55,051 nt of DNA, taken from a virus. Lineage: Duplodnaviria > Caudoviricetes. The first letter of the stretch is position 1. Every line of letters starts with the position of its first letter. The position numbers and the translations under genes were made by a program. Positions 2,549 to 24,383 of this stretch are shown here, in pieces. The DNA lies in IMG/VR virus record IMGVR_UViG_3300044262_000024, positions 1-55,051 of that record; one strand, written 5' to 3'. The notes under the pieces were generated by a model. It was not told where the DNA came from. It saw only the letters and a program-made list of their open reading frames with translations, and made no database searches.

Positions 2549-5500
2549 ATGGCAAAGAAATGGGGTGATGTTGCCGCAAGCGCGGAGTTCAAGGCGCTTT
2601 CCGGTGATGAGCAAGAGGCGGCGCGCAATGAATACTTCAACACCGTAATTGCCCCTCAATTGCCGGAATCTGACGTGAAGTTTGCGCGCGGACAGTTCGA
2701 TGACGACACCAAACCAACCTTCTTCGATGGTGTGAAGGAGTTGGCCGCTCAGGCCAAGGACAACATCGTAAGCGCCTTCACTGACCCTCTCGGTAAAGGA
2801 AGCGAGGCCGAGCGGCCCGTCACGCAGATGGTCGATGCAGACAGGGCCGCGTCAGGCGCACCGCGAGCCGCCACACCCAAGGAAGCCCCGCCTGTCTCCC
2901 CCGTGTCGCTCAGCGACGACCTGCTGCAATCCGCCAAGGCCCCGCAGGCCGACATGGAAACGCTGCGCACCGAGGGCTTTGCTGCTGCATCCGCCAAGCT
3001 GCGCGGCGAGCAGGACGCCAAGGCCAATGCCCCGCTGCGCGAGCCGGCTCGCAAGATGCTGGACGATCGCACTGCCGGCGACGTGGCGCACGACTACGCG
3101 GTTTCTCTCAACAAGGGTATCGGCCAGACGGTCGAAATGGGCGGCACGATCTATGGCCTCATCAGCGGCGACATGGACAACACTGTCCGCAAGACCGGAG
3201 AGCACTACGTCAAGCGCAGCGAGGCCAAGCTGTCACCGTTCCGCCAGCAGGAGATCGCCGACCAGCGGCAGAAACTGAAGACGATCGAGGAAGAGGCCGG
3301 GCAGTCGGCGGCATTCTTCGTGGCCCTGGCTGATTCGCTGGTCGACCCGATGAAACTGGTCGAGCAGCTTCCGCAATTGGCGGTAGGCGGTGGCGCCGGC
3401 AAGGTTGTCGGCGGCGCGGTCGGTAAGGCTGCGGCCAAGCACGGCACCACGGCGGCTGTCGGTACGACCGTGGCCGCCAATGCGGCGATGGAAGGAGCGG
3501 ACCCCGCGGGTGACGCCTACGACCGCATGATGGCGCTGCCGGATGAGTTGTGGCAGCAGAGCGACGCCTACCAAGCCGAACTGGCCAAGACCGGCGACGC
3601 CCAGGCGGCCAAGCACGCGGTTTCGTTGAGTTCGGCGCGCAAGCTGGCCGGCGTGGCGGGCGGGATCGCGCTGGGTGCGGCATTCCTGCCGGGCGGCCGC
3701 ACGATCGATAACCTGCTGGTCGATGGCGTTCAGGGCGTCGGCGGCCGTGCGCGGCGTGCCGGTGTCGGCGCAGCGGGCGAGAGCGGCGGCGAGGCGCTGC
3801 AGGAAGGCGGCGGCGCGGCCGGTGCCAACCTGGCCGTGCAGCAGATCGACCCATCGCAGCAGGTCATGGAAGGCGTCGGCGCGGCGGCTGGCGAAGGCGC
3901 TGGCGTCGGCGGTCCCATGGGTGCGGCGGCCGGCTTTGCCTCCACTCCGCAGCAGGAAGACGCCGCCCCGACCGAGGCTGATTACCGCGAGGCCGTGCAA
4001 CGCGCTTTCCCCAGGACGTCGGCACGCGATGCGGAAGCGGCGCCCGTGGAGCAACCCCCGCAGGAAACCCGCACGCAGAAGATCAAGCGCGAGATCGAGG
4101 CACGCAAGGCAGCGCTGCGCGCCGAGATTGGCATGCCGGAACAACCGAAGCCCGCGATGCCTGCAGACGAGCTCGACCAGGATCAACTGCTGGAAGACCT
4201 GAATACAGAACAGGGGGCGGCCGATGGCGCAGCGCGACGCAGACCTGCCGAAATGGCTCAAGGCGGCGGTGAAGGCCGGGGCGATCTCGGAGCCCAAGGC
4301 ATTCCTGCTGCTGTGGTATCAGGATCAGGAAATGGAGTGGATACCCCTGCCGGAGTCGCTACACCCGGCGGCGGAAGCGATCTGGCTGCTGGAACTGCCG
4401 CCGGCGGGGCCGATGCAGTAGCACAAGGCGTTGGATTCAAAGAGGCATTTGACTCGCTTACCGAAGGCGGAACCACTGCAGACCTGTACCGCAAAGCATT
4501 CGATTCGCTGTCTTCTGGCAAGAGCACCATAGCCGGAGTAAAAGACCCAATCCTTGCGCGTGCCAAACCTGCATTCGACGCAGGGCTTATCAAGTCGCCT
4601 GACGACATCCGTAATTTTGAGCAGTCCGGGTATCCGAATGCCAAGCCCGCGGCTATCGACGACGCCGCCCACCAAGCCGCGACCAGCCCGACGGATACGC
4701 TACAGAATACCCAGGAGACGCAATCTGTTGCCGACGCAATGGTGGTTGGTTCCGACCGCAGCGGCGATAGACCGAAGCGAGTGTCCGGTATTGAACAGGC
4801 GGACGGCTTCGGCGACATCCCAAAAGACGGGCCGCAGAGCGGTCGTGCGAATACCACGACGCTGGAAGGCCTGAGCGAGAGTGCGATAGGTGGTTCCAAC
4901 CTCCCGCGCGATGTCTTGCGTGCGCATGCCGCCAGCGGCAAGAGCTTTGGCTCGCTCGATGTCCCAGGACAGCGACGAGTGCTCGATTCGGTGCGCGCGC
5001 TGATCGACGACGATAAGGTTTTCGGGTCTGTTGTTCAGTCCGTTCCCGTCGATGTGATGAACCAACTCGCCGGGTCTGAGCTTGCGGCCAAGCAGGCGCT
5101 GGACGACAAGGCGATGTTCATAGACGCGCTCTCCAGTGGGCGAAACGGTCTCGATGTACGGAGTAGAGCGGTCGATGCGCTGGTGCGCAGTCCTGCATTT
5201 GCGGCTGCAGTACATGCGTCCCCACTTGGCGCGGGACGGAGTGCGGAAACTGACGGCTCCACAGAACAGGCAGGTGATGGCAACGGGCATACGGAACAGG
5301 CTATCACGCGGGAAACAAAACTGCAACCCACAAACGGCAAGGATCAACCGAGCGGAGCGCCCGCCCTGTCCATCGGCTCCACCCCCAACAATGCCGAGCC
5401 CATCACCGTCAAGAATGGCGTGGTCCACGTCGGCAAGTACCCGGCTATGCACTTCGAGTCAGGCGCAGACGTCACCGTGCCGGCCGGCGCCGACAACGCG

Positions 5501-8500
5501 GCGATCGCGCAGGCGCTGCGTGATGCCGGGGTACTGAGCAGCCGGCAACGGATTTACGGCCTACCGAAAGCGACCAAACACAAGTACGACTTGCCGCCAT
5601 CGACAGTGATTCCGGACGAGCCGGCCGAGATTCCGCAGCCGTCGCGCGCACAGCAGATCAAGCAGCAGGATACCAAGGCCAGGAACAAACGTGCCGCGAA
5701 GTCGATCCTGACCGCCGATGACCTGTCCGCGCAGTCGCGCAAGACCTTCATCAAGGCCATCAAGGACATGGGCGGGATCAAGGTCGAGGAAGCCCGCGAC
5801 GTCAGCGGCGAGCCCGCGCACATCGCAAACCGCATGGCGCCTGGCCTGTTCCGCAAGGAAGGCAACGTGCTTGACCTGATTGCACGCCGCCTGAACGAAC
5901 TCGGATATTTGAGCGACGCCGACTACAATGATGTCGACGGCGGCGTGCAGTCCGTGCGCGACCTGATCGGCCAGGCGCTTTCCGGCGAGGCGGTGATGAC
6001 CACAGCCGAGCAGGAGCGCTACCGCGAACTGGTTGCCAAGGAGCAGGAACTGGCGGAAGCCATGCCGGCACGCAACGAAGCGCTGGCTGACATGGTGGAA
6101 GCCGAAGCAACCCAGGACGACGACGGGCTCGACCTCGACGCCCTGCCGACCATGAGCGAAGCCGACGCCATGCGGGCGATGGGATTCAGTGAGGAAGAGA
6201 TCAATGGGACAGCCAACGGAACGCAGGACGAAGATTCTCAAACGGCTCAAGGCGCTGCCGAAGTCGGAGCGGCTGAAGGTGCTGCAACTGGCGCTGGTGA
6301 AGCGGGCCAAGCGGGCTTTGCTCTTGAAGGCCAAAGCCCGGCAGACGTAAAGGCAGCAGAAGCCAAGAAGCAGGCCGACGCCGAAGAGAAGGCGAAATCC
6401 GACGCTGCCGCCGAAGCCAAGGCGAAAGCCGACGCCGAGCGCGACAGCTTCACCCTGGCAGGCTCCGACCGGGCGGCCGATGCCAACCCGAATCAGGCGG
6501 ATATTTTCGGGCAGCCTGTTCAGGAAAATCCCGCGTCCACGGAACGTGAACAACAGACCAGTGATGAACTGAGCCCGCTCACCAAGGCCATGAATGACCT
6601 GGCCGACGTGCGCCAGCGCATCGAAGATCAGGGCCGTGTGGCTGACGACCGCCTGCTGGAGCGCGAGCGCCAGTTGCGGAAGATGGTCAAGGAGTTGGAG
6701 CGGGCCGCCAAACCGAACAAACTCGACGCCGCCGCCGCCAGCATCGACGAAGAACTCGACGCTGCGCTGAATGACCTGGCTGACGCGCTGAAGAAGCAGA
6801 GCGGCCAACTGAATTCAGGCGTAGACCCGGCCATTCTGGCGCTGGGCGTCAAGGTGGGCTCGCTCTACGTCGCCAAGGGTGTGGTCAAGTTCGCGCAGTA
6901 CAGCCGCGCCATCATTGACGCGCTGAAATCCCGTGGCGTCGATGCCGAACAGATCAAACCCTTGCTCAAGCAGTTCTACGCTGCGACCAAGCAGACCGTG
7001 GACGATGCGACGTTCGAGCAGATGGACGATGACCGCGCGGTGCGTGGGTTCGATCTGGAATCGCTGAACGATGAGCCGGTGGCGGAAGCCAAGACAGAAG
7101 CAGAGCAAGAAACCAAGCAGCCGACCACGTTGGACGAGTTCATTGGCAATGTCGACGCTGGCTATAAGGCGCATTTCGACTACGCCGGGGTGGATGGCCG
7201 CACGGTCTGGATCGAGAAGACCGCGCAGGGCTGGGTAATGAAGTCCAAGGATGATGGCCGTTCCTCAGTAATCACCAAGGGCGGGGCCCGGCCGTGGAGC
7301 AAGGGCGACGCGCTCGATGCCGCCGAGCGCGATGCGGAGTACCGTTTTACCAAATGGAAGCCGCTGGCTGACGAAGCACCGTCACCCGTTGCCATGCCTG
7401 AAGCAAACCCGCTCCACGCCGAAGCAGATGCGCTCGGGATTACGGTTGGCAGCAAGACGGATGCACAACTGCGTGCGCAGATCGACTACGCCAAGGCTGG
7501 TGCTGCCCCGGTAGAGGACGCGCCCGCCGAGAAGATCGTCGGCGACAAACTGGAAACCAACCTGCCGGAAGTCGAGCATGTCACCGGCAAGGGCAAGACG
7601 CTGGCGGGCGTGGTCACGAAGACGCTGACCAAGGACCAGGCCGCGGCCGTCGACAAGTTCACCTTCAGGAAGGACGGCGGCTACTTCATTCGCATGAAGC
7701 ATGTGGTTCGTCCAGGTGTTGCCGAGCAAACCCGCGCCGGCACCATCGCCAGCGAAGTGAAGGCGGTCGGCATGCGCGTGATCGTCAATAGCGATAGCCG
7801 CTCATTTTACGAGGGTGAGGCGGACTTCAACGCAGGCAAGCCGCGCGTGCTGCCGTCCTATTACACCGAAACCACCGGCAAGAATGCGAAAGACTGGTAT
7901 CGGGGCTGGGACGCTGCCAACGTGGCGGCCCCGGTATCGGGTGCTACACTAAACGCGGAGGCCAACAATGATGCCGAACACTCACGAATTCCTGAACAAG
8001 CACGTCCTGCAGCCGGAGACGATCAAGCAGATCGAGGCGATGGGCGAGGTGGCGAGCCAGGTAGCCGACCGCTGGGCGGGGGCGTGGCCGAAGCAGACGC
8101 GCGCCTTGGAGAAGGCGGGGGCGCTGTTGCAGGCCGTGAAGGAGCAGGCGGAACTGGAAGCGCAGGCAGTGGCCTACGAGGCGCAGAATCCGTGGGTCGG
8201 GGGAATCGAGAGCCGTCAGATGTTCGGGATCGACCTGAACGCGCCGCCGCCGACGACGTAAGCCTACCGTCCGAGCCGCGCGCCGACTTCGTTGTCGGCG
8301 ACGATACCGCCGAAGCAATCAGCGAGGGCGGCCAGAAAACCAAAGCCCGCAACAACATCGCCGCGATCCGGCTGGTCAAGAAACTGGCCGCCGAGGACCG
8401 CCGCGCCACCATGGACGAGCAGAAGGCGCTCGCGCGCTATGTCGGCTGGGGCGGTATCAAGCAGATTTTCGACGACGGCAAGACCGAATGGGGCGCGCTG

Positions 8501-11500
8501 CGCGATGAACTGAAGGCGCTGCTGACGGCCGAAGAGTACGCCGCGGCAAACCGTTCGATCCTCGATGCGCACTTCACCAGCATGGACGTGGTGACCGGCA
8601 TGTGGGGCGCGGCCAAGCACTTGGGTTTCCACGGCGGGCGCGTGCTGGAGCCATCGGTCGGCGTCGGCAACTTCTTCGGCGCCATGCCGCAGGACGTGCG
8701 CGCCAATTCCACCCTGTTCGGCGTGGAACTGGACAACATCACCGGACAGATCGCCAAGTACCTGTACCCAAACGCGACCATTGCCACCCCGTCAGGCTTC
8801 CAGGATATTGAATTCCCGTCCGGCAGCTTCGACTTCGCCACCGGCAACCCGCCTTTCGGCGAGCAATCGCTGTACGACCGCGCGCATCCCGAGTTCCGCA
8901 GTTTCTCGATCCACCAGTTTTTCTTTGCCAAGGCGCTCGACAAGGTGCGCCCGGGCGGGATCCTGCAAATGGTGGTGTCGCGCTACCTGATGGACAGCCG
9001 CGACGCCGCCGGCTACAAGGCGCGCGAATACCTGGCGCAGCATGCCCGCCTGCTGGGCGCGATCCGCCTGCCGTACAACGCTTTCCTGTCCAACGCCAAC
9101 ACCGAAGTCGTGACCGACATCATCTTCCTGCAGAAACTGGAAGAGGGCGAGGTCGGAAATCCGGAAGCATGGACCGACATGGCCGACGTCGAGACGGTCC
9201 ACCCGAAGACGGGCGAGAAGTTCAGCTTCAGCGTCAACCGCTACTTTGCCGATCACCCGGAAATGGTCGTCGGCACGCACGCGCCGACCGGCAAGATGCG
9301 CCAGGCCAACCAGTACAACGTCGAGCCCCCGGATATGCCGCTGGCGCTGGCCATTGGTCAGGCCGTGGCCAACCTGCCGCGCGATGTTTACCGCGCCGCC
9401 GGCAAGCCGCTGGCCGAACTGGCTTCAGCAGATGCCACCGTGCCGGAGGGCACCAAGGTCTACGGCTACTACCTGGACGGCGAGACAATCATGCAGCGCC
9501 TGCCGGATTCGGCGGGGCAACGTCAGGCCCGCGCGATCGAGTTCAAGGACGGCATGGCGCCCAAGCGCGCCGCCCGCATGATCCAGATTCGGGACACGCT
9601 GCGCAGCCTGATGCGTCTGGAGTTGTCGGAAGAGGCGACCGATGGCCACATCAAGGTCATGCGTGCCACCCTCAATGAGCAGTACGACGCCTTCCGCAAG
9701 ACATTCGGCTACATCAACCAGCCGTCCAACCGCCGCGCGTTCGCCGATGATCCGGACCTGCCGCTGTTGGAATCGCTTGAACCGAAGTTCGATCCCGGGC
9801 TGGGCTCAGAAGCGGCCAAGAAGCGCGGCGAGCCGGCCCGGAAGCCGAGCGCCGAGAAGGCCGACATTTTCAGCAAGCGCGTGCTGCAGCCGCAACATGA
9901 AGTGAAGTCGCTGGAGGCCCAGCAGTACGGGCATCTGCAATCCAATGTCGCCATGCAGGACCGGCTGGCCATGTACCAGCGTGCGCCGCAGAAGATGCGC
10001 GAGCAGCTTGAGTGGGTGCTCCCGTTCAAGGAGGCGGCGGCAGCCCATCCGGCCAAGCCGTTCAGCTACACGACCGCCAATGGCAAGGCGATCGACGACA
10101 TCAAGAACGTCGCCACGCCCATTACCGAGGCCTTTGTGCTGGCGGCCAAGGGAAAGGCCGGCGAGGACGTGACTGCCGGCGAGTATCGCGGCATGAAGAT
10201 CCGCTTCCAGCGCGTGCATGGCTCCATCACGGTCGTCATGCTGAAAGGTGAGCATTCGCTGTTTGTGGGCGATTACACGATGGACGACAAGTTTTCGCCG
10301 TCCGGGCTGTTCACCCGCATCGAGAACGCCATCAGCAAACTGGACGAGCGCGAGAAAGAGGTCCGCGCCGAGGCTGATCGCAGGCTGGCCGAGATCCCGA
10401 AACTGGAAGCCGAGATTGCCAAGCCGTTCGCCAAGGAGGCCGACCTGAAGGCGGCCCGCCAGAAACACCGCGAAACCGTGTCGAAGCTGGCCAAGGCCGG
10501 CGGCGGGGTGGAGTTGTCTCCGGAAATGAAGGAGGACCTGAAGCTGGCGCTGGTGCAGCGGATGCTCGAAGGGCGCAATGCCTCCGGCGATACGTCATTC
10601 GGGTTCGTGGAAGCCGCTGGGGGCTTTACCCCCATCCTTCAACGAGAACTCGATAACGTCATCAAACGGGTCTCCGCCCGCTGGGAACGTCCGAAGGGTT
10701 TTGAGGGCGGGCGTATCACCGCCGTCGACACGCCTGCCGGGCTCCCGGTGTCGATTCTCCGCGCGGCCGCGGCGCAGAATATTCCGCAGGATGAAATCAA
10801 GGGCGTTCTTCACAATGGGCATGTCTACCTCGTCCGGGAGAATTTGAAGGATGCGGCTGACGCCGAACTGACGATCTTCCATGAGGCTTACGGCCATCTT
10901 GGGGCCCGGCTTTACTTCGGCCCCGACGCCAAGGCCGTCGAAAGGGCCATGCTGTCCATCTGGAGAAGGGTAGGCGACCTGGATGGCGTGCGCAACATGG
11001 CCGAGCGGTTCGGCGTGCTGCGCGACGTTGAGCCGTACATCAAGGCGCTGGCCACGGCCGATATGTCGCCCATCGCCAAGCAGAAGATCATCGTCGATGA
11101 ACTGCTGGCGCATGTGGCTGGACGCGGCGACTTCACCCTGGCCGAGCAGTTGAAGGCCTACGTCGGCGCGCTGCGCATCGCATTGCGGAATGCCGCCAAG
11201 GCGATGGGGCTGGATCGTTTGGCCGAGTCCATAAGCCGGTTCACGGACAGTGAATTGCTGTGGACGCTGAAAGGGATGCGGGACGCTGTTGTGAGCGGGA
11301 AGACCGGCAAGGGCGACGGCACGTTGTTTGCCAGGGCGGGCCAGACCGAAACCGAAGCCAGCAAGAAGCCGAAGAAGATAAGCGACAGCACTTACAGCTA
11401 TCGTGGATTTAGGATTAAAAAGGATGTTTCTCCGTCATCAACGGGGTGGAGCAACACCTACACCATTAGGAATGACGGCAAGAAGGTCAGTGTTGATACG

Positions 11501-14404
11501 CTGAAAGATGCGCAAAAGTACATTGATAGGCTTATCGCAGACAACCCTGACGATCCCGACACCCGTTTCGCCAAAACCACACAACAGACCCCGCCACCCG
11601 GCGGGGTTTCTGCTTCTGGACGCCAGAATGCGCTGCCTGGAATGCAAGTCGCCTCCCCGGCAGCGCCGACGATCCAGCCGCCGCTCGGCCTGTCGGGTGG
11701 GCTCAGTGGCAGCCAGGCGTCATGGTCGGAGCCGATTGATTCAGCATTCGATGATTTCCTCTACAAGTGGCAGGACAAGCACGTCGACACCCGGCGCGTG
11801 GTGCAAGCCGTCAGGGATGCCGCCGGACAGCTTGCCGACAAATGGAACCCCTATCTGCAGGAAGAGCTTTTCCACGGTCGCGCCGCCAAGCACACACTCG
11901 ATTTTGTTGACCGCGAACTGAAGCCGCTGGTGGTGATGATGCGGCTGCGCGAGCTGTCGATGGACGACATCGACCAATATTTGTGGGCACGCCACGCCAA
12001 GGAGGCCAACGCGCTGATTGCAAGCCGCGACCCGAGCATGCCTGACGGCGGCTCTGGCATGACGGATGCCGATGCCAATGCCTACTTCGCCGCACTCGAC
12101 CCAGCCAAGCAAAAACGCTTGGAGGACACCGCCAAGGCCGTCGACGAGATCATCGCCAGGACGCGCCAGATGTACGCCGAATACGGGCTTGTGTCGCAGG
12201 ACACCGTGGACGGCTGGATGGATATGTTCCAGCACTACGTCCCGCTGATGCGCGAGGACAGCGACGGCGCCATGGGAATCGGGCAGGGCTTCTCGATCAA
12301 AGGCAAGGAGGTCAAGCACCGCACCGGCTCCGGTCGCAAGGTGGTCGACATCCTGGCCAACATCGCCCTGCAGCGCGAGAAGGTCGTCGTGCGCGGCGAG
12401 AAGAACCGAGTGGTGCTGGCGCTGGCTGGGCTGGCGAAGCTGAATCCGAACCCGGATTTCTGGAGCTTCGATAAGGTTCCGACCGAGCGGGTGCTGAACG
12501 AGAAGACCGGGCTGGTCGAGGACCGTCAGGATCCGATGTTCAAGAGCCGCCCCAACGTGTTGGTCGCCAAGATCAAGGGCAGGAGCGGGCAGGTTGAAGA
12601 GCGCGCAATCGTGTTCAACGATGCAAACGAGCGCGCCTTGCGCATGGCGGAGTCGCTGAAGAATCTCGACGTCGGCGCGCTGGAGGGTGTGATGGGCGTG
12701 TCGGCGGTGATTACCCGCTACTTTGCCTCGGTCAACACGCAATACAACCCGGTGTTCGGCTTCGTCAACCTGACGCGCGACGTGCAGGGCGCGATGCTGA
12801 ACCTGAGTTCGACGCCGCTGAAGGGAAAGAAGCTGGACGTGCTGGCGCACACCTTCACCGCGCTGCCTGGCATCTACCGCGATGCGCGCGCCGAGCGCAA
12901 AGGCGGCGTCGGAACGTCGAATTGGGCGCTGCTGTGGGGGCAGTTCACCCGTGAGGGTGGACAGACAGGCTACCGCGACCTGTACCGCAATAGCGCCGAC
13001 CGCGCGAAGGCCATCCATCACATGCTCGATCCGGCCGCCTGGATGAATAGCGGATGGGGCAAGGTGTTCACAGCAGGCGGGGCGCTCAAGGTGCCTCTAA
13101 CAGTGGCGCAGAAACTGGCCACCCCTCTGTTCAACTGGCTGTCGGACTTCAACCTGACGATGGAGAACGCGGTACGGCTGTCGGCCTACAAGGTGGCGAT
13201 CGACCAAGGTATGAGCCAACAGCAGGCGGCAAGCCTGGCCAAGAACCTGACCGTCAACTTCAACCGCAAGGGGCAGGTGACGCAGCAGGTCGGCGCGCTG
13301 TACGCCTTCTTCAACGCCAGCATGCAGGGATCGGCGCGATTGGCCGAGACGCTGGGCAAGATGGACCGGCCCGGCGACATCAAGAGCATGCGCCTGTCGC
13401 GCGCCGGCGCGGCCATCGTCGGCGGCGGCGTGCTGATTGGGGTGATGCAGGCGGTACTGCTGGCGTCTGCAGGCTACGAAGACGACGAGCCGCCCGAGTT
13501 CATTCGTGAGCGCAACCTGATCATGCCGCTGGGTTGGCTGACCGGCAAGAAGGATCACCTGATGATTCCGATGCCGCTGGGCTACCACGTCTTCCCCAAC
13601 ATCGGCCGCATTCTGGCCGAAACCGCCATCCGTGGCGGCGAAGGTGCGGCCGATCGCGTCATTGACATGATCAGCATCGTGGCCGGCGCATTCAACCCGT
13701 TCGGAGGCGGCGGGGTCAATCTGCAGACGATCATGCCGACCGCGTTGGACCCGCTGGCCGCGCTCGCCGAAAACAAGGACTGGACCGGCAAGCCGATCTA
13801 CCGCGATGGATTCGGCAGCAACGAGACGCCCGGATTCGCCCGCACCAAGGACACCGCCAGCAGCTATGCGAAAGCTTTGGCCGAGGGAATCAACAGCGTC
13901 ACTGGCGGGACCGAGTACACGGCAGGCCGGTTCAGCCCAACCCCTGACCAGATCGACTATCTGGTGGCTCAGGTCACGGGCGGCGTAGGCCGCGAACTTG
14001 GCAAGGCTGAACAGAGCATCACCGCGACGATGACCGGTGAGGAACTTCCGCCGCACAAGGTTCCGCTGCTGGGGCGCTACTACGGCAGCAACGAAGGCGC
14101 ATCAGGCCAGTCGGACCGCTTCTACGCCAACCTCAAGGAGGCTAACCGGCATGAAGCCGAGATCAAGGGGCGGAGGCGCAACCATGAGCCGGTCGGCGAA
14201 TACCTCGACACACATCCTGACGCGCAGCGCTTTGCCAGCATGGGAAATCGCGCCGAGCGCCGCATCAAGGCGCTGCGCGAGCAGAAACGCAAGCTGGTAA
14301 AGGAAGGCGCGTCGCGCGTCGAGATCATCAGCATCGAGGCTGAAATCGCCACGCGCATGCGTGAGTACAACGACGACTTCCGTACGGCGAAGGATGGTCA
14401 GTAA
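2549..14404 (+). CDS. Giant DarB-like polyvalent virion protein: N6-adenine methyltransferase, zincin-like HExxGH motif, LPD38-like C-terminus; SNF2 helicase apparently missing
   Basis: 3951 aa. MTase motifs VLEPSVGVGNFFG (~8640) and GNPPFG (~8845); DarB-type KTKARNNIAAIRL..YVGWGG; IFHEAYGHLG (~10875); C-terminal IPMPLGY/ENKDWTGKPI. Confidence 0.85.
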   Translation: MAKKWGDVAASAEFKALSGDEQEAARNEYFNTVIAPQLPESDVKFARGQFDDDTKPTFFDGVKELAAQAKDNIVSAFTDPLGKGSEAERPVTQMVDADRAASGAPRAATPKEAPPVSPVSLSDDLLQSAKAPQADMETLRTEGFAAASAKLRGEQDAKANAPLREPARKMLDDRTAGDVAHDYAVSLNKGIGQTVEMGGTIYGLISGDMDNTVRKTGEHYVKRSEAKLSPFRQQEIADQRQKLKTIEEEAGQSAAFFVALADSLVDPMKLVEQLPQLAVGGGAGKVVGGAVGKAAAKHGTTAAVGTTVAANAAMEGADPAGDAYDRMMALPDELWQQSDAYQAELAKTGDAQAAKHAVSLSSARKLAGVAGGIALGAAFLPGGRTIDNLLVDGVQGVGGRARRAGVGAAGESGGEALQEGGGAAGANLAVQQIDPSQQVMEGVGAAAGEGAGVGGPMGAAAGFASTPQQEDAAPTEADYREAVQRAFPRTSARDAEAAPVEQPPQETRTQKIKREIEARKAALRAEIGMPEQPKPAMPADELDQDQLLEDLNTEQGAADGAARRRPAEMAQGGGEGRGDLGAQGIPAAVVSGSGNGVDTPAGVATPGGGSDLAAGTAAGGADAVAQGVGFKEAFDSLTEGGTTADLYRKAFDSLSSGKSTIAGVKDPILARAKPAFDAGLIKSPDDIRNFEQSGYPNAKPAAIDDAAHQAATSPTDTLQNTQETQSVADAMVVGSDRSGDRPKRVSGIEQADGFGDIPKDGPQSGRANTTTLEGLSESAIGGSNLPRDVLRAHAASGKSFGSLDVPGQRRVLDSVRALIDDDKVFGSVVQSVPVDVMNQLAGSELAAKQALDDKAMFIDALSSGRNGLDVRSRAVDALVRSPAFAAAVHASPLGAGRSAETDGSTEQAGDGNGHTEQAITRETKLQPTNGKDQPSGAPALSIGSTPNNAEPITVKNGVVHVGKYPAMHFESGADVTVPAGADNAAIAQALRDAGVLSSRQRIYGLPKATKHKYDLPPSTVIPDEPAEIPQPSRAQQIKQQDTKARNKRAAKSILTADDLSAQSRKTFIKAIKDMGGIKVEEARDVSGEPAHIANRMAPGLFRKEGNVLDLIARRLNELGYLSDADYNDVDGGVQSVRDLIGQALSGEAVMTTAEQERYRELVAKEQELAEAMPARNEALADMVEAEATQDDDGLDLDALPTMSEADAMRAMGFSEEEINGTANGTQDEDSQTAQGAAEVGAAEGAATGAGEAGQAGFALEGQSPADVKAAEAKKQADAEEKAKSDAAAEAKAKADAERDSFTLAGSDRAADANPNQADIFGQPVQENPASTEREQQTSDELSPLTKAMNDLADVRQRIEDQGRVADDRLLERERQLRKMVKELERAAKPNKLDAAAASIDEELDAALNDLADALKKQSGQLNSGVDPAILALGVKVGSLYVAKGVVKFAQYSRAIIDALKSRGVDAEQIKPLLKQFYAATKQTVDDATFEQMDDDRAVRGFDLESLNDEPVAEAKTEAEQETKQPTTLDEFIGNVDAGYKAHFDYAGVDGRTVWIEKTAQGWVMKSKDDGRSSVITKGGARPWSKGDALDAAERDAEYRFTKWKPLADEAPSPVAMPEANPLHAEADALGITVGSKTDAQLRAQIDYAKAGAAPVEDAPAEKIVGDKLETNLPEVEHVTGKGKTLAGVVTKTLTKDQAAAVDKFTFRKDGGYFIRMKHVVRPGVAEQTRAGTIASEVKAVGMRVIVNSDSRSFYEGEADFNAGKPRVLPSYYTETTGKNAKDWYRGWDAANVAAPVSGATLNAEANNDAEHSRIPEQARPAAGDDQADRGDGRGGEPGSRPLGGGVAEADARLGEGGGAVAGREGAGGTGSAGSGLRGAESVGRGNREPSDVRDRPERAAADDVSLPSEPRADFVVGDDTAEAISEGGQKTKARNNIAAIRLVKKLAAEDRRATMDEQKALARYVGWGGIKQIFDDGKTEWGALRDELKALLTAEEYAAANRSILDAHFTSMDVVTGMWGAAKHLGFHGGRVLEPSVGVGNFFGAMPQDVRANSTLFGVELDNITGQIAKYLYPNATIATPSGFQDIEFPSGSFDFATGNPPFGEQSLYDRAHPEFRSFSIHQFFFAKALDKVRPGGILQMVVSRYLMDSRDAAGYKAREYLAQHARLLGAIRLPYNAFLSNANTEVVTDIIFLQKLEEGEVGNPEAWTDMADVETVHPKTGEKFSFSVNRYFADHPEMVVGTHAPTGKMRQANQYNVEPPDMPLALAIGQAVANLPRDVYRAAGKPLAELASADATVPEGTKVYGYYLDGETIMQRLPDSAGQRQARAIEFKDGMAPKRAARMIQIRDTLRSLMRLELSEEATDGHIKVMRATLNEQYDAFRKTFGYINQPSNRRAFADDPDLPLLESLEPKFDPGLGSEAAKKRGEPARKPSAEKADIFSKRVLQPQHEVKSLEAQQYGHLQSNVAMQDRLAMYQRAPQKMREQLEWVLPFKEAAAAHPAKPFSYTTANGKAIDDIKNVATPITEAFVLAAKGKAGEDVTAGEYRGMKIRFQRVHGSITVVMLKGEHSLFVGDYTMDDKFSPSGLFTRIENAISKLDEREKEVRAEADRRLAEIPKLEAEIAKPFAKEADLKAARQKHRETVSKLAKAGGGVELSPEMKEDLKLALVQRMLEGRNASGDTSFGFVEAAGGFTPILQRELDNVIKRVSARWERPKGFEGGRITAVDTPAGLPVSILRAAAAQNIPQDEIKGVLHNGHVYLVRENLKDAADAELTIFHEAYGHLGARLYFGPDAKAVERAMLSIWRRVGDLDGVRNMAERFGVLRDVEPYIKALATADMSPIAKQKIIVDELLAHVAGRGDFTLAEQLKAYVGALRIALRNAAKAMGLDRLAESISRFTDSELLWTLKGMRDAVVSGKTGKGDGTLFARAGQTETEASKKPKKISDSTYSYRGFRIKKDVSPSSTGWSNTYTIRNDGKKVSVDTLKDAQKYIDRLIADNPDDPDTRFAKTTQQTPPPGGVSASGRQNALPGMQVASPAAPTIQPPLGLSGGLSGSQASWSEPIDSAFDDFLYKWQDKHVDTRRVVQAVRDAAGQLADKWNPYLQEELFHGRAAKHTLDFVDRELKPLVVMMRLRELSMDDIDQYLWARHAKEANALIASRDPSMPDGGSGMTDADANAYFAALDPAKQKRLEDTAKAVDEIIARTRQMYAEYGLVSQDTVDGWMDMFQHYVPLMREDSDGAMGIGQGFSIKGKEVKHRTGSGRKVVDILANIALQREKVVVRGEKNRVVLALAGLAKLNPNPDFWSFDKVPTERVLNEKTGLVEDRQDPMFKSRPNVLVAKIKGRSGQVEERAIVFNDANERALRMAESLKNLDVGALEGVMGVSAVITRYFASVNTQYNPVFGFVNLTRDVQGAMLNLSSTPLKGKKLDVLAHTFTALPGIYRDARAERKGGVGTSNWALLWGQFTREGGQTGYRDLYRNSADRAKAIHHMLDPAAWMNSGWGKVFTAGGALKVPLTVAQKLATPLFNWLSDFNLTMENAVRLSAYKVAIDQGMSQQQAASLAKNLTVNFNRKGQVTQQVGALYAFFNASMQGSARLAETLGKMDRPGDIKSMRLSRAGAAIVGGGVLIGVMQAVLLASAGYEDDEPPEFIRERNLIMPLGWLTGKKDHLMIPMPLGYHVFPNIGRILAETAIRGGEGAADRVIDMISIVAGAFNPFGGGGVNLQTIMPTALDPLAALAENKDWTGKPIYRDGFGSNETPGFARTKDTASSYAKALAEGINSVTGGTEYTAGRFSPTPDQIDYLVAQVTGGVGRELGKAEQSITATMTGEELPPHKVPLLGRYYGSNEGASGQSDRFYANLKEANRHEAEIKGRRRNHEPVGEYLDTHPDAQRFASMGNRAERRIKALREQKRKLVKEGASRVEIISIEAEIATRMREYNDDFRTAKDGQ
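4224..4421 (+). CDS. Overprinted 65-aa protein in the +1 frame of the giant gene
   Basis: Purine-rich SD (AGGGGG) before ATG; globular-looking Trp/Leu-rich sequence while the main frame is a low-complexity Gly/Ala linker. Confidence 0.55.
   Translation: MAQRDADLPKWLKAAVKAGAISEPKAFLLLWYQDQEMEWIPLPESLHPAAEAIWLLELPPAGPMQ
4700..5290 (-). CDS. HNH homing endonuclease with Zn-finger and C-terminal HTH repeats, wholly antisense inside the giant gene
   Basis: CLFCG..YCSRKC; YEHRLVV..LGRKL..ELVHHIDGNGLNNRPENL; likely start MPVAIT at 5290. Confidence 0.85.
   Translation of the reverse strand: MPVAITCLFCGAVSFRTPSRAKWGRMYCSRKCRTAHQRIDRSTPYIETVSPTGERVYEHRLVVQRLLGRKLRPGELVHHIDGNGLNNRPENLIVVDQRAHRIEHSSLSWDIERAKALAAGGMRTQDIAREVGTTYRTLAQAFQRRGIRTTALRPVFWDVAEAVRLFNTGHSLRSIAAAVGTNHHCVGNRLRLLGIL
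6204..6350 (+). CDS. Overprinted 48-aa basic helical protein in the +1 frame (below the ORF-track cutoff)
   Basis: GAGGAAGAG before ATG; MGQPTERRTKILKRLKALPKSERLKVLQLALVKRAKRALLLKAKARQT; GC3-rich codons in this frame. Confidence 0.5.
   Translation: MGQPTERRTKILKRLKALPKSERLKVLQLALVKRAKRALLLKAKARQT
7968..8261 (+). CDS. Overprinted 97-aa protein in the +1 frame, immediately before the MTase domain
   Basis: Strong SD GGAGG (7957-7961); globular sequence (VADRWAGAWPKQTRALEKAG); main frame here is R/G/D-rich disorder. Confidence 0.7.
   Translation: MMPNTHEFLNKHVLQPETIKQIEAMGEVASQVADRWAGAWPKQTRALEKAGALLQAVKEQAELEAQAVAYEAQNPWVGGIESRQMFGIDLNAPPPTT
11588..11617 (+). terminator. Terminator-like hairpin inside the giant ORF
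   Basis: ACCCCGCC-accc-GGCGGGGT followed by TTCTGCTTCT. Confidence 0.35.
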
Positions 14405-16840: not shown

Positions 16841-18379
16841 ATGATACGTGTCGCTATTTACTGTAGAAGCTCCAAGGACCGCTCGGACGTGTCCATTGAT
16901 GCCCAGCGGCGCCAGTTGCAGGAACTGGCCGCCGCGCGTGGCATGAGCATCGTCGCCGAGTTTTCCGATGCCGTTGAGTCTGGGAAGGACGACGATCGCC
17001 CGGACTTCCAGCGCATGCTGCGCGAATTGCGCAACCCGAGACGCGGCTGGGACGCTGTTCTGGTACTCGATACCGCGCGCATTGCCCGCCGTCGCCACCT
17101 GGCCATCATCTTTGAAGAGCACGAATGCAAGCGTGCCGGGGTGCGGGTCATCTACAAGAGCCTCCCCGAGTCTGATCCCATCACCGAAATGCTGCTCAAG
17201 TCCATCCTGCAGGCGATGGATGAATGGCACAGCCTGACCAGCCGGTCCAAGGGGCTGGCCGGCATGAGCGAGAACGTCAAGCAGGGATACCGGGCCGGGG
17301 GAAGCGCGCCGAAAGGTTACCGGCTCGACGCCATCGCCACCGGGGCAATCCGCGACGGCCAGCCTGTCACAAAGTCCAAGCTGGTCCCGGGCGACGACGC
17401 CATGCTGGTGCGCGCCTACCTGCAGCACCGGGCGCGCGGCCTGTCGCGTGCGCGTGCACTGGCCCTGGTGGGGGCCGGCTGGCCCGTGACGACGCTCCTA
17501 TACATGGAGCGCAATGCGCTGACCTACGCCGGGCACACGATCTGGAATCGCCACGCCGAGCGCGACGGCACCCGCTACCAGGGCGGCGATCGCTACCGGC
17601 CGCGAGAGGAATGGGTGATCGAGCGCAACACCCATGAGGCGCTGATCTCCGAAGACGAGGCCAACATCATCACGGCCGCCGCCGAGTCTCGCCGGCCGAC
17701 GCGGGCGCGGGAGGGCGTCGGCTACATGCTGCGCGGCCTGTTGATGACGCCTGACGGGCAAAAGTGGCACGCCGATGGTGACGGGTCATACCGGGTAGGC
17801 AAGGGCAAGCGCATCAAGGCGAGCGAAGTTGATGCGGTCGTGCTGGACGCCATCAAGGCCGACATCGTGAGCGACGAGTTCGCCAGCGCGGTGCTGGACC
17901 ATTACCGCGCGCTGGCGAAGCCGGCCAGCCGTGACAGGTCGGCGACGAAGGCGGCCGCCAGAATCCGCGAGATCGAACAACAGACGCACCGCCTGGCCGA
18001 GCTCATGGGGCAGACTACCGCACCGGAGGCGCTACTGCGCTCGATCGAAAAGCTGGAAGCCGAGCGCGACGGATTGGCAGAACAGATCGCTGCCTCGAAG
18101 GAAGCAGAGAAAGCGGCGACGAGCCTGCGCAGCCTGACGCTGGCCCAGGTCAAGACGTTTCTCGGGAATATTCAGGTTGAGGACATGGACAATGACGCCA
18201 TGGCCGCATTGGTGGAGCGGATCACGCTCGATCCAGCCACGATGGAGGCGCGGATTTACTACAAAATTTGCCAACTTACCGGGGATAAGTTGGCGTCCCC
18301 ACGGGGCACAGAACTTATCCCCGCTTTCGCGTCTCCGCGCGCCGTCGTGATTCCGCACCGTAGGCGGGCTGCGATCTAA
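16841..18379 (+). CDS. Large serine recombinase (phage integrase)
   Basis: AIYCRSS catalytic Ser motif, D..ESG..RP.F, D..RIAR, recombinase domain GYR, coiled-coil C-terminus. Confidence 0.93.
   Translation: MIRVAIYCRSSKDRSDVSIDAQRRQLQELAAARGMSIVAEFSDAVESGKDDDRPDFQRMLRELRNPRRGWDAVLVLDTARIARRRHLAIIFEEHECKRAGVRVIYKSLPESDPITEMLLKSILQAMDEWHSLTSRSKGLAGMSENVKQGYRAGGSAPKGYRLDAIATGAIRDGQPVTKSKLVPGDDAMLVRAYLQHRARGLSRARALALVGAGWPVTTLLYMERNALTYAGHTIWNRHAERDGTRYQGGDRYRPREEWVIERNTHEALISEDEANIITAAAESRRPTRAREGVGYMLRGLLMTPDGQKWHADGDGSYRVGKGKRIKASEVDAVVLDAIKADIVSDEFASAVLDHYRALAKPASRDRSATKAAARIREIEQQTHRLAELMGQTTAPEALLRSIEKLEAERDGLAEQIAASKEAEKAATSLRSLTLAQVKTFLGNIQVEDMDNDAMAALVERITLDPATMEARIYYKICQLTGDKLASPRGTELIPAFASPRAVVIPHRRRAAI
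18280..18323. other. attP: 12-bp inverted repeats around a 16-bp tRNA-Glu 3'-end identity
   Basis: CGGGGATAAGTT (18280-18291) / AACTTATCCCCG (18312-18323); core TGGCGTCCCCACGGGG is the reverse complement of CCCCGTGGGGACGCCA. Confidence 0.8.
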
Positions 18380-22033: not shown

Positions 22034-23269
22034 TCAATCGACTAGAGCAACAATTTCGTTTAGGTCAGGAAAAAGGAACTCATACCCTTTCGCGTATTCC
22101 TTGAACCATCGAATATTTTTTTCGATCCTGTCGGCGATCTCGTTGGCTTCGACCTTGGCCTGCGCAAGCGCCCCGGCTACCTTGTCGCGCATGGAGTCGA
22201 GCGACTTTAGGCCTTTGATGGCGTCGGAGAAGACCAGCGAATTCGGCGTCGGCATCCACTTTCCGCCGATGCGCTCGTTCAGCGAGTTGAAATGCGCAAT
22301 CAAAATGTCTGACGCATTGCGCACAATCTCGGCCTTGCGGTTCGCCTTCTCCGCGTCTACCAGCTTGTTGAGCGCCAGCCGCTTGGCTTTCATCTGCTCG
22401 CTGATGGCGTCCACGGTGCGGAACAGTTCGTCGATGCTGGCCGTCTGTGCCAGCGCCTGCGACTTCGCAAGGGCAAGCCGTTCCTCGCCGTCCTTCAAGA
22501 ACTTCACCATCTTGTCGGCGTCGGCAAAGTCCTGGTCGTTGACCAGTTCGGTCTTGATGCCGTCGATGAAGGTCTGCGCGGCCTGCTTGAACGCCTCCAG
22601 GTTGGTGGCCAGTACCTTGCCCTCGACCTGGACGAACAGGGCGGGCAGGGCTTCGATGGTGGCGGCTACCGGGGCTGGGGCGGTTTCGACATGCTGGTAG
22701 TTGGCCAGGTCTTCGGCAAACTGCTTCCAGCCGGCGATCAGCTTCTCGCGGCGGCCGGGCACGGCTTCGTACCACATGCCGACCGTGTTCTCGGGGGTGC
22801 CGTCGCTGGTGGTGAAGTAGATCCGCTCGGCGCCCGATACCAGAAGTTGCTGCTCAAGCTGCCAGTAGTAGTGCGGCTCAAGCTGGCCGGCGCGCACGGC
22901 ATCGGCCAGGGCAGCGTTCCACAGCTTCGATTCCCAAGCCTTGTCTTCGATGTCGGTCAGGCCGTCGAAACTTGCCAGCAGGCGCATCCCGTCAACTTCG
23001 ATCCAGCCGGTGACGGGGTACAGCGTTTCACCGATGATCCCCTCGACGATGGGCCGCGCGGCGGCTTCAGCGGCGTGTCCGCGGTCGAACAGGCGTTGCG
23101 TGCCTTCGTCAACGTCCTTGGCCAGTCCGGTGGCCTTCTGCTTCAGTAGATCGCTGCGCGTCTGGTACTTGCTGGCGCCCATCATGGCCGGGGCTTCCGA
23201 TGCGGTGAAGCATCCGGCGCGGGCGGCCAGCCATTCGTTCGTCCCTTGCAATGCGTCGATAGTGTTCAT
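22034..23269 (-). CDS. YqaJ-like (lambda-exo family) exonuclease
   Basis: QGTNEWLAAR..TASEAPAMMG..GH..E..LASFDG..WESK..YYWQLEQQL. Confidence 0.9.
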   Translation of the reverse strand: MNTIDALQGTNEWLAARAGCFTASEAPAMMGASKYQTRSDLLKQKATGLAKDVDEGTQRLFDRGHAAEAAARPIVEGIIGETLYPVTGWIEVDGMRLLASFDGLTDIEDKAWESKLWNAALADAVRAGQLEPHYYWQLEQQLLVSGAERIYFTTSDGTPENTVGMWYEAVPGRREKLIAGWKQFAEDLANYQHVETAPAPVAATIEALPALFVQVEGKVLATNLEAFKQAAQTFIDGIKTELVNDQDFADADKMVKFLKDGEERLALAKSQALAQTASIDELFRTVDAISEQMKAKRLALNKLVDAEKANRKAEIVRNASDILIAHFNSLNERIGGKWMPTPNSLVFSDAIKGLKSLDSMRDKVAGALAQAKVEANEIADRIEKNIRWFKEYAKGYEFLFPDLNEIVALVD

Positions 23270-24078
23270 TGTTCTGCCTCCATTTCCTGTACAAAGTCGG
23301 CGTCAATGGCCGGGGTGGGCGCCAGGGCGAGAATCTGCGCGCGCTGTGCGTCGGTGAGGGTGAATCGGGTCGCCGCCATGTCGGCAAAGGCTTGCGCGGT
23401 CTTCTTGCCGGCGTCGATTGCTGCCTGCCACTTGGGGAACTGCGCTTCAAGTTCGGCCTGGTCACACGGTGGCAGTTCTGCCTTTGCGGCTGGCGTGACT
23501 TCGCCGGTGCTGCGGTCGATGGTGCCCATGTCGCGCACGGTGTAGTCTGCCAATTCCTCTGCACCGCCCAACCCTTTAAGCAGGTCCGAAGCGGCATCGC
23601 GCGCCGCAAACCAGAATGCGCGCCATGCCATCTGCCGCTCCGGGTTCGTCCTCCACGGCCCTTCCTTTCCCCACAATCCGGCCGTCTTGGCGTTGTCGAT
23701 GCAATATGTGCGCTCGACCGGCGGACGGTTGCCGCGCGTGATCTTGCAGCGTGCCCGACCGGACTTCTTGATGATCTCGATGTCGTCTTCTTCGATGACG
23801 CAGCCGGCTGCAAGCAGGATCGCCTTGCCGGCATCGCCGTAGATTCCGGGCTTGCCATTGATGACCGCAATGTTCTGGATGGCGGCCATCGGTTGCAGGC
23901 CAACCTCGTTACCCATCTGGACCGCAATCAGCACATCACCAGGCTTGCCCCGGAAGCTCTTGGGGACAAGCTCGGAGTCGGCCATCATCTTGGCGAAATC
24001 CATAGCTTCAGTAAGGGTGCGCGGGGCCAGCGAAAACGTTTGAGGCATGGCGGGTTTTTGTGCGGCGAGGTCGCTCAT
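23266..24078 (-). CDS. recT: RecT-like single-strand annealing protein
   Basis: SELVPKSFRGKPGDVLIAVQMG.EVGL.PM.AIQNIAVING.P..W..NPERQM.WRA; paired with YqaJ. Confidence 0.85.
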   Translation of the reverse strand: MSDLAAQKPAMPQTFSLAPRTLTEAMDFAKMMADSELVPKSFRGKPGDVLIAVQMGNEVGLQPMAAIQNIAVINGKPGIYGDAGKAILLAAGCVIEEDDIEIIKKSGRARCKITRGNRPPVERTYCIDNAKTAGLWGKEGPWRTNPERQMAWRAFWFAARDAASDLLKGLGGAEELADYTVRDMGTIDRSTGEVTPAAKAELPPCDQAELEAQFPKWQAAIDAGKKTAQAFADMAATRFTLTDAQRAQILALAPTPAIDADFVQEMEAEQ

Positions 24079-24383
24079 TTGGCAAGTCTCCATAAAATGA
24101 CAAAAGCCAGCATCAGCACGGCGGCAGCAATGCCCGCCCAGCCGCTGCGGCTGCGTTGCAGAAAGGTGATGCGGCCAGGTGCCGGCTCGTTGTGACCGAA
24201 CGCCTCGCGGGACGAGCGCGGAAAGCGCGCGGTCAGGTTGTCGTCGGTGCATGCGGTGCCGTCGATCAGGAAGCCAAGCGGCTGCGGACGGCGTGGCTTG
24301 TATCGGTTCGGCGTATTGAGTCCACGTTCAGCCGCGACGATCAACGGGCTGCGAAGCTGGGTCTGCTGTCGAATGGTCTGCAT
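24075..24383 (-). CDS. Hypothetical protein with C-terminal TM
   Basis: RFPRSSREAFG motif and hydrophobic C-terminal helix. Confidence 0.55.
   Translation of the reverse strand: MQTIRQQTQLRSPLIVAAERGLNTPNRYKPRRPQPLGFLIDGTACTDDNLTARFPRSSREAFGHNEPAPGRITFLQRSRSGWAGIAAAVLMLAFVILWRLAK

Follow-up and report, generated by a model that had tools for sequence, protein, structure and literature searches.

Introduction

Introns, inteins and intergenic DNA are the established hiding places from which homing endonucleases persist in genes of essential or useful function, and some free-standing homing genes split a gene in two, as mobE does in nrdA of Aeromonas phage Aeh1. A fourth route, residence within a coding frame combined with read-through, was described only in 2025, for same-strand copies in a few mycobacteriophages. 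This is the ShiLan domain, a hidden out-of-frame HNH in mycobacteriophage DNA methylase genes (Arsenault, Gosselin & Gogarten 2025, PMC11855218). Here we analyzed a complete viral contig of IMG/VR (record IMGVR_UViG_3300044262_000024; 55,051 bp, about 62% G+C, estimated to be 94% complete), which at its full length is referred to as the window. Its plus strand carries an unbroken open reading frame (ORF) of 3951 codons (2549..14404) encoding a DarB-like polyvalent giant protein of 3951 aa (protein P0002), and a 196-aa HNH ORF lies on the minus strand inside it (4700..5290). We consider it probable that this ORF is a homing-endonuclease gene of the free-standing type, with HNH and helix-turn-helix (HTH) parts, nested backwards in an inter-domain slot of the giant polyvalent gene.

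As set out in the part of the ShiLan study drawn on here (PMC11855218), the ShiLan HNH resembles that of the window in being about 195 aa long with flanking zinc-finger regions, in lying within an open host frame and in showing no intron or intein features. It is likewise patchy among alleles, has no ribosome-binding site that was seen and gives an in-frame translation without known function, and the Pacc40 insertion, which is related to ShiLan, yields a disordered, low-confidence model (PMC11855218). Comparison of the sequences revealed that the window HNH matches the ShiLan HNH in 15 mycobacteriophage records with 40.7–42.7% identity over residues 3–104/106, 14 of these 15 lying under genes annotated as methylase or methyltransferase, and that the window and ShiLan HNHs share one 24-row fork of the HNH tree, with weak support (a Shimodaira–Hasegawa-like approximate likelihood ratio test [SH-aLRT] value of 83). 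The geometry of the two systems differs. In phage ShiLan, which we checked, the HNH is encoded on the same strand as its host at a frame offset of 2 (the third frame), with 195 aa from a GTG, whereas the window HNH is on the opposite strand and codon-aligned. The host in the window is a giant polyvalent protein with the insertion in an inter-domain slot, while the ShiLan host is a methylase with the insertion inside a domain; and whereas the host mRNA can serve a same-strand copy, an antisense copy depends on a transcript of its own. Since the window HNH is not on the host strand, the locus is an antisense form akin to the ShiLan hidden HNH that lies outside the strict ShiLan type. The main text of the ShiLan paper contains none of the words antisense, reverse, opposite and complement (PMC11855218). 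The portion of the study of polyvalent proteins considered here mentions neither homing nor antisense and mentions HNH once, in an unrelated context (PMC5512222), and the literature searched contained no report of an antisense HNH nested in a protein-coding frame.

The window gene also resembles the free-standing phage HNH homing endonucleases of the I-HmuI-like kind, in which HNH_3 is followed by HTH, and other phages have stand-alone relatives of it that are annotated as HNH or homing endonucleases. Free-standing HNH genes sit between genes, whereas the window gene sits inside a coding frame that stays whole.

Identification of an intact HNH gene on the minus strand

The minus-strand ORF starts with an ATG at 5290-5288 and ends with a TAG stop at 4702-4700. 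When an upstream GTG start is included, it spans 4700..5452 (250 aa), with the first ATG at 5290; the ATG start, giving the 196-aa form, is favored because the alignments of relatives begin at residues 1–5 of that form. The N-terminus contains a CxxC...CxxxC putative zinc ribbon (5195..5272, minus strand, residues 7–32), which was read from the translation and whose Cys pairs are aligned also in the nested loci L003 and L004. The HNH_3 catalytic core (4991..5122, minus strand, residues 57–100 of the 196-aa form) matches Pfam PF13392 with 35.8 bits against a cutoff of 24.8. In an alignment of six nested HNHs, the residues E58, H59, R60, V77, H78, H79, G82, N87, N91, L92, H100 and H104 are invariant, and the conserved His/Asn/His motif residues H59, H78, H79, N87, N91, H100 and H104 are all present. 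A first helix-turn-helix, HTH_23 (4859..4945, minus strand; Pfam PF13384, 27.6 bits against 24.6), lies where AlphaFold2 (AF2) also places helices. A second helical DNA-binding module at the C-terminus (4703..4816, minus strand) is indicated by a match of PHROG 664 ('DNA binding protein') to residues 160–246 of the 250-aa form and by AF2 helices at residues 159–192, with a block-mean predicted local distance difference test (pLDDT) of 86–97; this module aligns with those of L002 and L005.

The HNH protein matched 13 PHROG families, 11 of them annotated as HNH endonuclease, and an HNH profile run over the whole window gave a single match, which is the nested gene. The AF2 model, built from a shallow alignment, has a mean pLDDT of 75.6, with 124 of 196 residues at 70 or above. 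A sequence-profile search of the PDB with the HNH returned only designed helical repeats and one HTH protein. The relatives are distant: the best in viral contigs has 43% identity, and a word-index protein search with the HNH gave one distant match, of 45% identity over 45% of the length. Judged from its sequence, the minus ORF is a genuine and intact gene of the HNH_3 family, with putative nuclease activity and homing. A sequence-only reading of this stretch had described an intact antisense 196-aa HNH inside an open plus frame and some 200 plus-strand residues that are the reverse complement of the nuclease. Both descriptions hold, the profile check proposed with them having given the above-cutoff HNH_3 match, and the finding is broader than the single case described there.

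Codon register of the nested and host frames

Comparison of the two frames revealed that they are codon-aligned, with position 1 of one opposite position 3 of the other (register 0). The giant-protein residues 718–914 (4700..5290, plus strand), hereafter the shadow peptide, are the exact codon-by-codon reverse complement of the HNH ORF, as 4700 starts a plus codon; in the host frame, the HNH ATG is read as His914 and the HNH stop TAG as CTA, Leu718. In this register, TTA, CTA and TCA are the only HNH codons able to stop the host frame, and since the HNH uses none of them, the 3951-codon frame is uninterrupted, while the other two plus registers across the HNH hold 6 and 7 stops. The nested gene keeps its own start and stop, with its cost limited to synonymous codon choice, and register 0 therefore explains why nesting is cheap.

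The same three codons are absent from all 24 verified nested ORFs, every one of which is in register 0, and from only 3 of 66 free-standing relatives (1 of 23 at a G+C fraction of at least 0.55 and 2 of 43 below it). This free-standing control omits sense frames longer than 330 aa (L015, L045, L084, L085, L094 and the stop-to-stop piece of L025), as well as rows without a single open sense frame. At the nested locus L004 (45% G+C), an HNH free of the three codons would be expected with a probability of 0.0016 given the codon usage of the host.

Recurrence of antisense nesting

Viral contigs were searched with the window HNH (16 loci) and with the alignment of six nested HNHs (best 80 of 540 relatives). 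An antisense frame of at least 500 aa ran across the HNH match in 22 of 96 rows, or in 20 of 94 unique contigs once L027 and L036, which are duplicate contigs of L005 and L006, had been dropped; in the search with the six-HNH alignment (best 80 of 540), 12 of the 13 best matches were nested. A local profile search found an intact HNH-frame piece in register 0 at 17 of 20 viral loci, with host frames of 640–3999 aa and contigs of 44–68% G+C. Among bacterial and archaeal genomes, taken one per species, the top 5 of the best 80 loci were nested in register 0 in host frames of 1119 to at least 4313 aa. This brings the nested loci seen at the DNA level, besides the window, to 22 (17 viral contigs and 5 genomes). 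The HNH_3 gathering score was passed by every ORF in the two sets tested (20/20 and 4/4); L110 and L111 were checked only with our own HNH profile. HNH queries against cultured phages and plasmids gave no antisense-nested example, and 20 of 61 scorable free relatives face against both of their neighbors.

The hosts at the nested loci are polyvalent, with InPase, LPD38, LPD22, LPD1, ART-PolyVal, ddrB-ParB, PBECR5, SLT, helicase and methylase domains, and known domains often lie on both sides of the HNH. Of 16 viral host ORFs, 7 have the HNH in or near an InPase domain, either no more than 61 residues away (3 after the domain and 3 before it) or inside the domain (L005). One nested copy belongs to a prophage of a cultured bacterium, Aromatoleum anaerobium LuFRes1 (L113, NZ_WTVG02000039.1), where the HNH at 7863-8447 lies inside a 2398-aa ORF (3210-10403) matching the same DarB-like PHROG as the window host; this strain is a possible experimental system. 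In addition, two giant ORFs each contain two nested antisense HNHs, L023 (442-990 and 1399-1863) and L114 (5334-6047 and 7962-8459). The L114 copies fall in different tree groups and the L023 copies are not sisters, which points to separate insertions into one gene.

Recurrence bears on the idea that the locus is a coincidence or an artefact, with the antisense ORF owed to chance in GC-rich DNA or to chimeric assembly. The giant gene does contain many long antisense ORFs, of up to 426 aa, all in register 0, and the window thereby resembles the shadow ORFs of GC-rich genomes, for which the codon-aligned antisense register is the most easily open. The window ORF is unlike shadow ORFs in that it belongs to an ancient enzyme family and passes curated HNH_3 and HTH thresholds. 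It is not a gene overprinted de novo, and the 'shadow' is in the host gene. The arrangement recurs across the G+C range given above. As to a chimera, a separately assembled Logan contig of 7810 nt spans 3900-6300 with 0 differences from the window; it is probably from the same sample and thus represents a second assembly, not an independent sample. Coincidence or artefact is hardly credible on these grounds.

Some other arrangements were seen among the relatives. Three HNH_3-positive antisense ORFs in register 1 (L061 7520-8074, L072 7581-8477 and L091 3469-4191) were kept apart from the register-0 set. Their hosts are ORFs of 765–1049 aa at 44–47% G+C whose sole Pfam matches are sub-threshold ones to Intein_splicing and to which PHROGs gave no identity; these hosts are possible inteins with an antisense HNH in the endonuclease slot. 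An archaeal metagenome-assembled genome of 37% G+C contains a further register-1 case inside a 560-aa frame (L169, 584-1186; own profile only). The HNH of L028 (7809-8522) is the non-nested member of the well-supported group with the nested L004, L025 and L032 (SH-aLRT 96–97). It has one forbidden codon. Its shadow frame is open over 234 aa, and the start of this frame coincides with the stop of the upstream gene on the opposite strand. The L028 HNH may be a recently separated or escaped copy. The free-standing L088, L055, L069, L080 and L056 lie at gaps of -30 to 260 nt from two large opposite-strand ORFs (329–740 aa) and could be intergenic or gene-splitting insertions. Finally, at L084 (8001-8309), L085 (8001-8444) and L094 (518-868), two same-strand open frames (136–172 aa and 508–636 aa) cover the HNH match, making them candidate same-strand, ShiLan-like nested cases in viral contigs.

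The HNH cassette fills a variable slot of the giant protein

Logan assemblies supplied all seven of the homologous giant proteins that were found, of which P0003–P0007 are single polypeptides that align on both sides of the HNH segment. In an alignment of the window protein with these five homologs, the invariant columns end at P714 and resume at L940, delimiting a variable slot (4691..5365, plus strand, residues 715–939) that in the window is filled by the HNH cassette. The left anchor, DDAAHQAATSP (4658..4690, plus strand, residues 704–714), is nearly invariant in the six giant proteins, with D704, A706, A707, H708, A710, A711, T712, S713 and P714 as invariant columns. The right anchor, LSIGSTPNNAEPITVKNG (5366..5419, plus strand, residues 940–957), is invariant at L940, S941, G943, T945, P946, A949, E950, P951 and T953–G957. 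The slot of P0002 has 225 aa, made up of the HNH shadow and about 25 further residues. An InPase domain occupies the slots of P0005 and P0006 (181 aa each), P0003 (214 aa) and P0007 (251 aa), and the 52-aa slot of P0004 is a linker with no domain. The InPase assignment is based on PF18823 in residues 645–779 of P0006 (1e-46) and on precomputed Pfam lists for the homologs.

The HNH stop begins 10 nt past the left anchor, one codon beyond the conserved ATSPxD string, and about 75 nt (5291..5365, minus strand) separate the HNH start codon from the right anchor, which is the only room for expression signals of the cassette's own. The HNH ORF thus nearly fills the cassette, as is likewise reported for the ShiLan element in the passages considered (PMC11855218). 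Homologous giant genes without the insert, proposed earlier as a check, are present at the protein level: the shadow profile (see below) matches residues 719–915 of P0002 and none of the 7 homologs, so that presence among homologous host alleles is patchy and P0004, with its 52-aa linker, represents an insert-free allele. The invasion of a gene that the sequence-only reading had proposed is accordingly to be recast, simple insertion giving way to the occupation or replacement of a variable module slot that holds InPase in homologs.

At the DNA level, the anchor pattern occurred in 7 stretches of metagenome contigs, of which tblastn confirmed 0, and the only relative of the giant gene found as DNA was L020/L108, with 32% identity and without an HNH. 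The contigs of the source run contained no insert-free joint, although contigs cannot show absence. Just left of the left anchor, a 72-aa segment (AQGVGFKEAF...NAKPAA; 4421-4636, plus strand, residues 625–696) is missing from all five aligned homologs, and its codon usage looks plus-strand coding.

Divergence in the HNH frame and a shadow peptide without predicted structure

Divergence at HNH codon positions 1, 2 and 3 was 0.475, 0.383 and 0.608 among nested copies (276 pairs) and 0.499, 0.414 and 0.659 among free copies (2137 pairs); these values and the final trees use the 24 verified nested ORFs. The divergence of the nested copies shows the ordinary coding pattern and hence belongs to the HNH frame, and the host third position, which is HNH position 1, is not the fastest. 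In the 40–60% identity bin, the HNH wobble position alone sets nested copies apart from free ones (0.606 against 0.653), which hints mildly at added constraint on the nested copies. The HNH alignment has 21 invariant columns, compared with 4 in the shadow alignment. Amino-acid-level selection, as read from these alignments, is that of the HNH frame; purifying selection in the plus frame alone, which would have counted against the sequence-only reading, is the opposite of what was seen.

AF2 modeling of the shadow peptide, from an alignment as shallow as that of the HNH, gave a mean pLDDT of 44.2, none of its 197 residues reaching 70, and Pfam found no family in the shadow region of the giant protein. 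The shadow peptide is therefore predicted to be unstructured, and together with its inter-domain position this model agrees with the disordered linker that had been suggested from the sequence.

In a poorly resolved tree of 90 HNHs, 24 of 24 nested ORFs fall in one 34-row fork (SH-aLRT 89). The nested label requires 5 changes on this tree, against a mean of 21.4 when the labels are shuffled, and none of 500 shuffles was as low. This HNH lineage is for the most part a nested one.

These data also bear on a domesticated element, in which the HNH, its antisense RNA or the shadow peptide would serve the phage through competitor exclusion, sense-antisense regulation or cassette exchange between modules. 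Such a role would suit an arrangement that is widespread and long maintained, the nearness of the HNH to InPase in 7 of the 16 viral hosts, its filling of the homologs' InPase slot in the window and the slightly lower wobble divergence of the nested copies. Set against it are the absence of the segment even from close host homologs (0/7), the variable positions, the hosts with two copies from different tree groups, and a shadow alignment with four invariant columns and no predicted fold. Patchiness, varied positions and an unfolded shadow are typical of a parasite and not of a fixed functional part, and we regard domestication as quite unlikely.

A shadow profile matches many giant proteins

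A profile built from six shadow peptides was run against 1.84 billion representative proteins and gave 1166 matches at E ≤ 1e-3, 362 at E ≤ 1e-10 and 7 at E ≤ 1e-30. Among the 149 matches listed besides the window protein, 124 have at least 1000 aa, 88 at least 2000 aa and 8 fewer than 500 aa, with a median of 2339 aa, and some proteins contain two or three matched stretches, P0015 having three. Pfam was run on 19 of the 149, of which 14 had matches, 12 of them to families that Pfam names polyvalent-protein-associated; the best shadow stretch is free of Pfam matches in all of these proteins, and the InPase domain of P0021 is split by the shadow. Two matches agree in length with hosts verified as DNA: P0011 (2373 aa) corresponds to the L002 host, and P0012 has 637 aa against 640 aa for the L005 host. 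We infer that the remaining shadow-profile proteins carry an opposite-strand HNH as well. A word-index protein search with the shadow region matched only itself, and tblastn of the shadow peptides against cultured phages gave no match.

Introns, inteins and read-through

Group I and group II intron-encoded endonucleases and inteins were considered as candidate classes and rejected. For the former, no ribozyme core was found: an Rfam cmscan of 4000-6000 with permissive filters, which covers described families only, returned 0 matches at E ≤ 1. For the latter, Pfam found no intein family and no in-frame Hint or splicing domains or motifs in P0002. Antisense homing-endonuclease genes have been described inside nuclear group I introns (PMC9548176). 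As reported in the part of that study considered, the endonuclease gene is on the strand opposite to the host gene, as in the window, and the self-splicing intron lies in rDNA and is absent from the host product, whereas the window shows no intron signature and its frame is open (PMC9548176). Inteins are like the window element in that they are in frame, leave the host ORF unbroken and invade conserved genes, and unlike it in that their endonuclease shares the strand and frame of the host and Hint splicing motifs are required.

An open host frame is seen at all 22 nested loci besides the window, contigs of low G+C among them. Residence in an intron would not require it, and this argues for read-through. 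The segment could nevertheless be removed by an unrecognised intron or by intein-like protein splicing before the mature protein is made, in which case the open frame would be incidental (intron) or required only up to the splicing event (intein), since a novel ribozyme would escape the families that Rfam describes and since the antisense HNHs of L061, L072 and L091 lie in ORFs with sub-threshold intein-splicing matches. The negative Rfam and Pfam results speak against removal, as do the register 0 and the three-codon avoidance of all 24 nested ORFs, for which an intron would have no need, and the homologous ShiLan element is likewise described, in the part considered, as being without intron or intein features (PMC11855218). 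Splicing of either kind is very improbable, and the splice-free arrangement put forward in the sequence-only reading is retained.

Expression signals and the weighing of a silent relic

The 60 nt upstream of the window HNH start have 53% G+C, against 61% in the gene body, and the same region is less GC-rich than the gene body at 15 of the 17 nested starts examined. A motif resembling a Shine-Dalgarno (SD) sequence is present at about 7 of these 17 starts and is clear in L004, L023b, L025 and L029. The roughly 75 nt upstream of the HNH may have a role in its expression.

Several observations weigh against a nested, active homing-endonuclease gene. No SD-like motif lies upstream of the window HNH, and a scan for sigma-70 consensus promoters and terminators there gave 0 sites. 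One DNA run, probably the source sample, and no RNA run are listed as containing the stretch. Register 0 is antisense-open in 243 of 804 windows of 197 codons from the contig's own genes (30%), compared with 3/801 and 2/801 (<0.5%) in the other two registers, and the chance of zero forbidden codons, from the Leu and Ser content of the window HNH, is 0.24; as the open frame by itself is within chance, the reality of the gene rests on the profile match and on recurrence elsewhere. Log-likelihoods of codon usage do not separate the two strands of the segment (+0.06 and -0.02 bits per codon, against +0.32 ± 0.17 for contig genes), as is expected of foreign DNA. As to the beta-beta-alpha metal-finger fold of HNH endonucleases, Foldseek against the PDB placed I-HmuI (1u3e) as the top neighbor with E 0.019, probability 0.96 and TM 0.28, which is not significant. 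The relatives were sampled with nested-type queries as seeds, the DNA-level check of the antisense HNH covers the 22 loci besides the window, and the 1166 shadow matches are at the protein level only. On the poorly resolved HNH tree, nesting may have arisen once or several times. Finally, no close insert-free allele was found as DNA by phage blastn or in metagenome or genome contigs, and viral contigs gave none or distant ones; the cassette may have replaced an InPase module or entered a P0004-like allele.

Part of this evidence favors a silent relic, a cassette that is tolerated, neither expressed nor active, with only the plus strand under selection and the minus ORF open because the register is easy. 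The missing SD-like motif and consensus promoter, the 30% of windows open in register 0 and the ambiguous codon usage all fit it, and no close relative of the window copy is available from which its selection could be measured. It is harder to reconcile with a full-length ORF that passes the Pfam cutoff and in which all invariant HNH columns and the two HTH modules are retained, with nested copies that diverge in the HNH-frame coding pattern as free ones do, and with the 24 of 24 nested ORFs that are intact, unlike a population of decaying relics. On balance, a relic appears unlikely, and a nested homing-endonuclease gene remains the explanation that we prefer.

The phage and its giant polyvalent gene

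The giant protein matches PHROG 10089, 'DarB-like antirestriction' (E 2e-236). Its Pfam matches at E ≤ 0.01 are LPD38 (13484..14071, plus strand, residues 3646–3841; PF18857, 145.3 bits) and an Eco57I-type N6-adenine methylase domain (8777..9067, plus strand, residues 2077–2173; PF07669, 28.6 bits against 25.3), with no others. With these two domains it qualifies as a polyvalent protein; further domains, among them InPase, RadC, helicase and LPD37, are present in its homologs. In the gene order, the giant gene comes after internal-virion and ejection-like genes and before the endolysin gene. The part of the polyvalent-protein study considered proposes packaging in the virion for InPase-bearing members (PMC5512222), and from its family and gene order the giant protein may be packaged in the virion. 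To call it a virion protein, as the sequence-only reading did, overstates what family and gene order suggest, and the description of the host as an essential gene is not supported, since DarB-like polyvalent proteins belong to a class described, in the same part of that study, as conflict or accessory proteins (PMC5512222).

The phage also encodes RecE-like and RecT-like proteins and a serine-type integrase (22034-24252, minus strand, and 16841-18379, plus strand). These genes mark it as a temperate phage with recombination machinery of its own.

Discussion

If the nested gene is active, its mode of spread can be outlined. Alleles without the insert would be cleaved by the nuclease and would then acquire the cassette through recombination involving the conserved flanks; the RecE/RecT-like machinery of the phage itself could serve this homing. 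Copies that break the host frame would be lost, since the giant protein must be made in one piece, and host ribosomes would translate the segment into a passive linker, unstructured and about 200 residues long. Mobility by homing is suggested by the patchy presence of the cassette, its varied positions, the double insertions and its homology to an element reported to be actively homing.

A further step, which we find doubtful though possible, is that this HNH lineage has specialised for life inside coding sequence by way of register 0, and that its breaks, made beside module boundaries and in many cases close to InPase, drive the cassette exchange that makes polyvalent proteins mosaic. If this were true, an InPase module of the window would have given way to the HNH cassette between the two invariant anchors, and more than 1000 giant-protein clusters would hide an unannotated opposite-strand gene.

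The principle of a splice-free route into a gene, implied to be new in the sequence-only reading, was already published for the same-strand ShiLan element, as the part of that paper considered makes clear (PMC11855218); what stands as new is the antisense form. The window represents a mirror-image solution to that of ShiLan, and our survey suggests that it is common, with a shadow signature in 1166 protein clusters that consist for the most part of giant polyvalent phage proteins. Gene callers miss such nested genes, as seen from the window HNH, which is absent from the matches when the protein collection is searched with its own sequence. Stretches of about 200 residues in many giant phage proteins may accordingly be reverse-complement "noise" that is unfit for domain mining. 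The nested loci offer natural material for the study of dual-coding constraints, of antisense expression in phages and of how the shuffling of polyvalent-protein modules is initiated.

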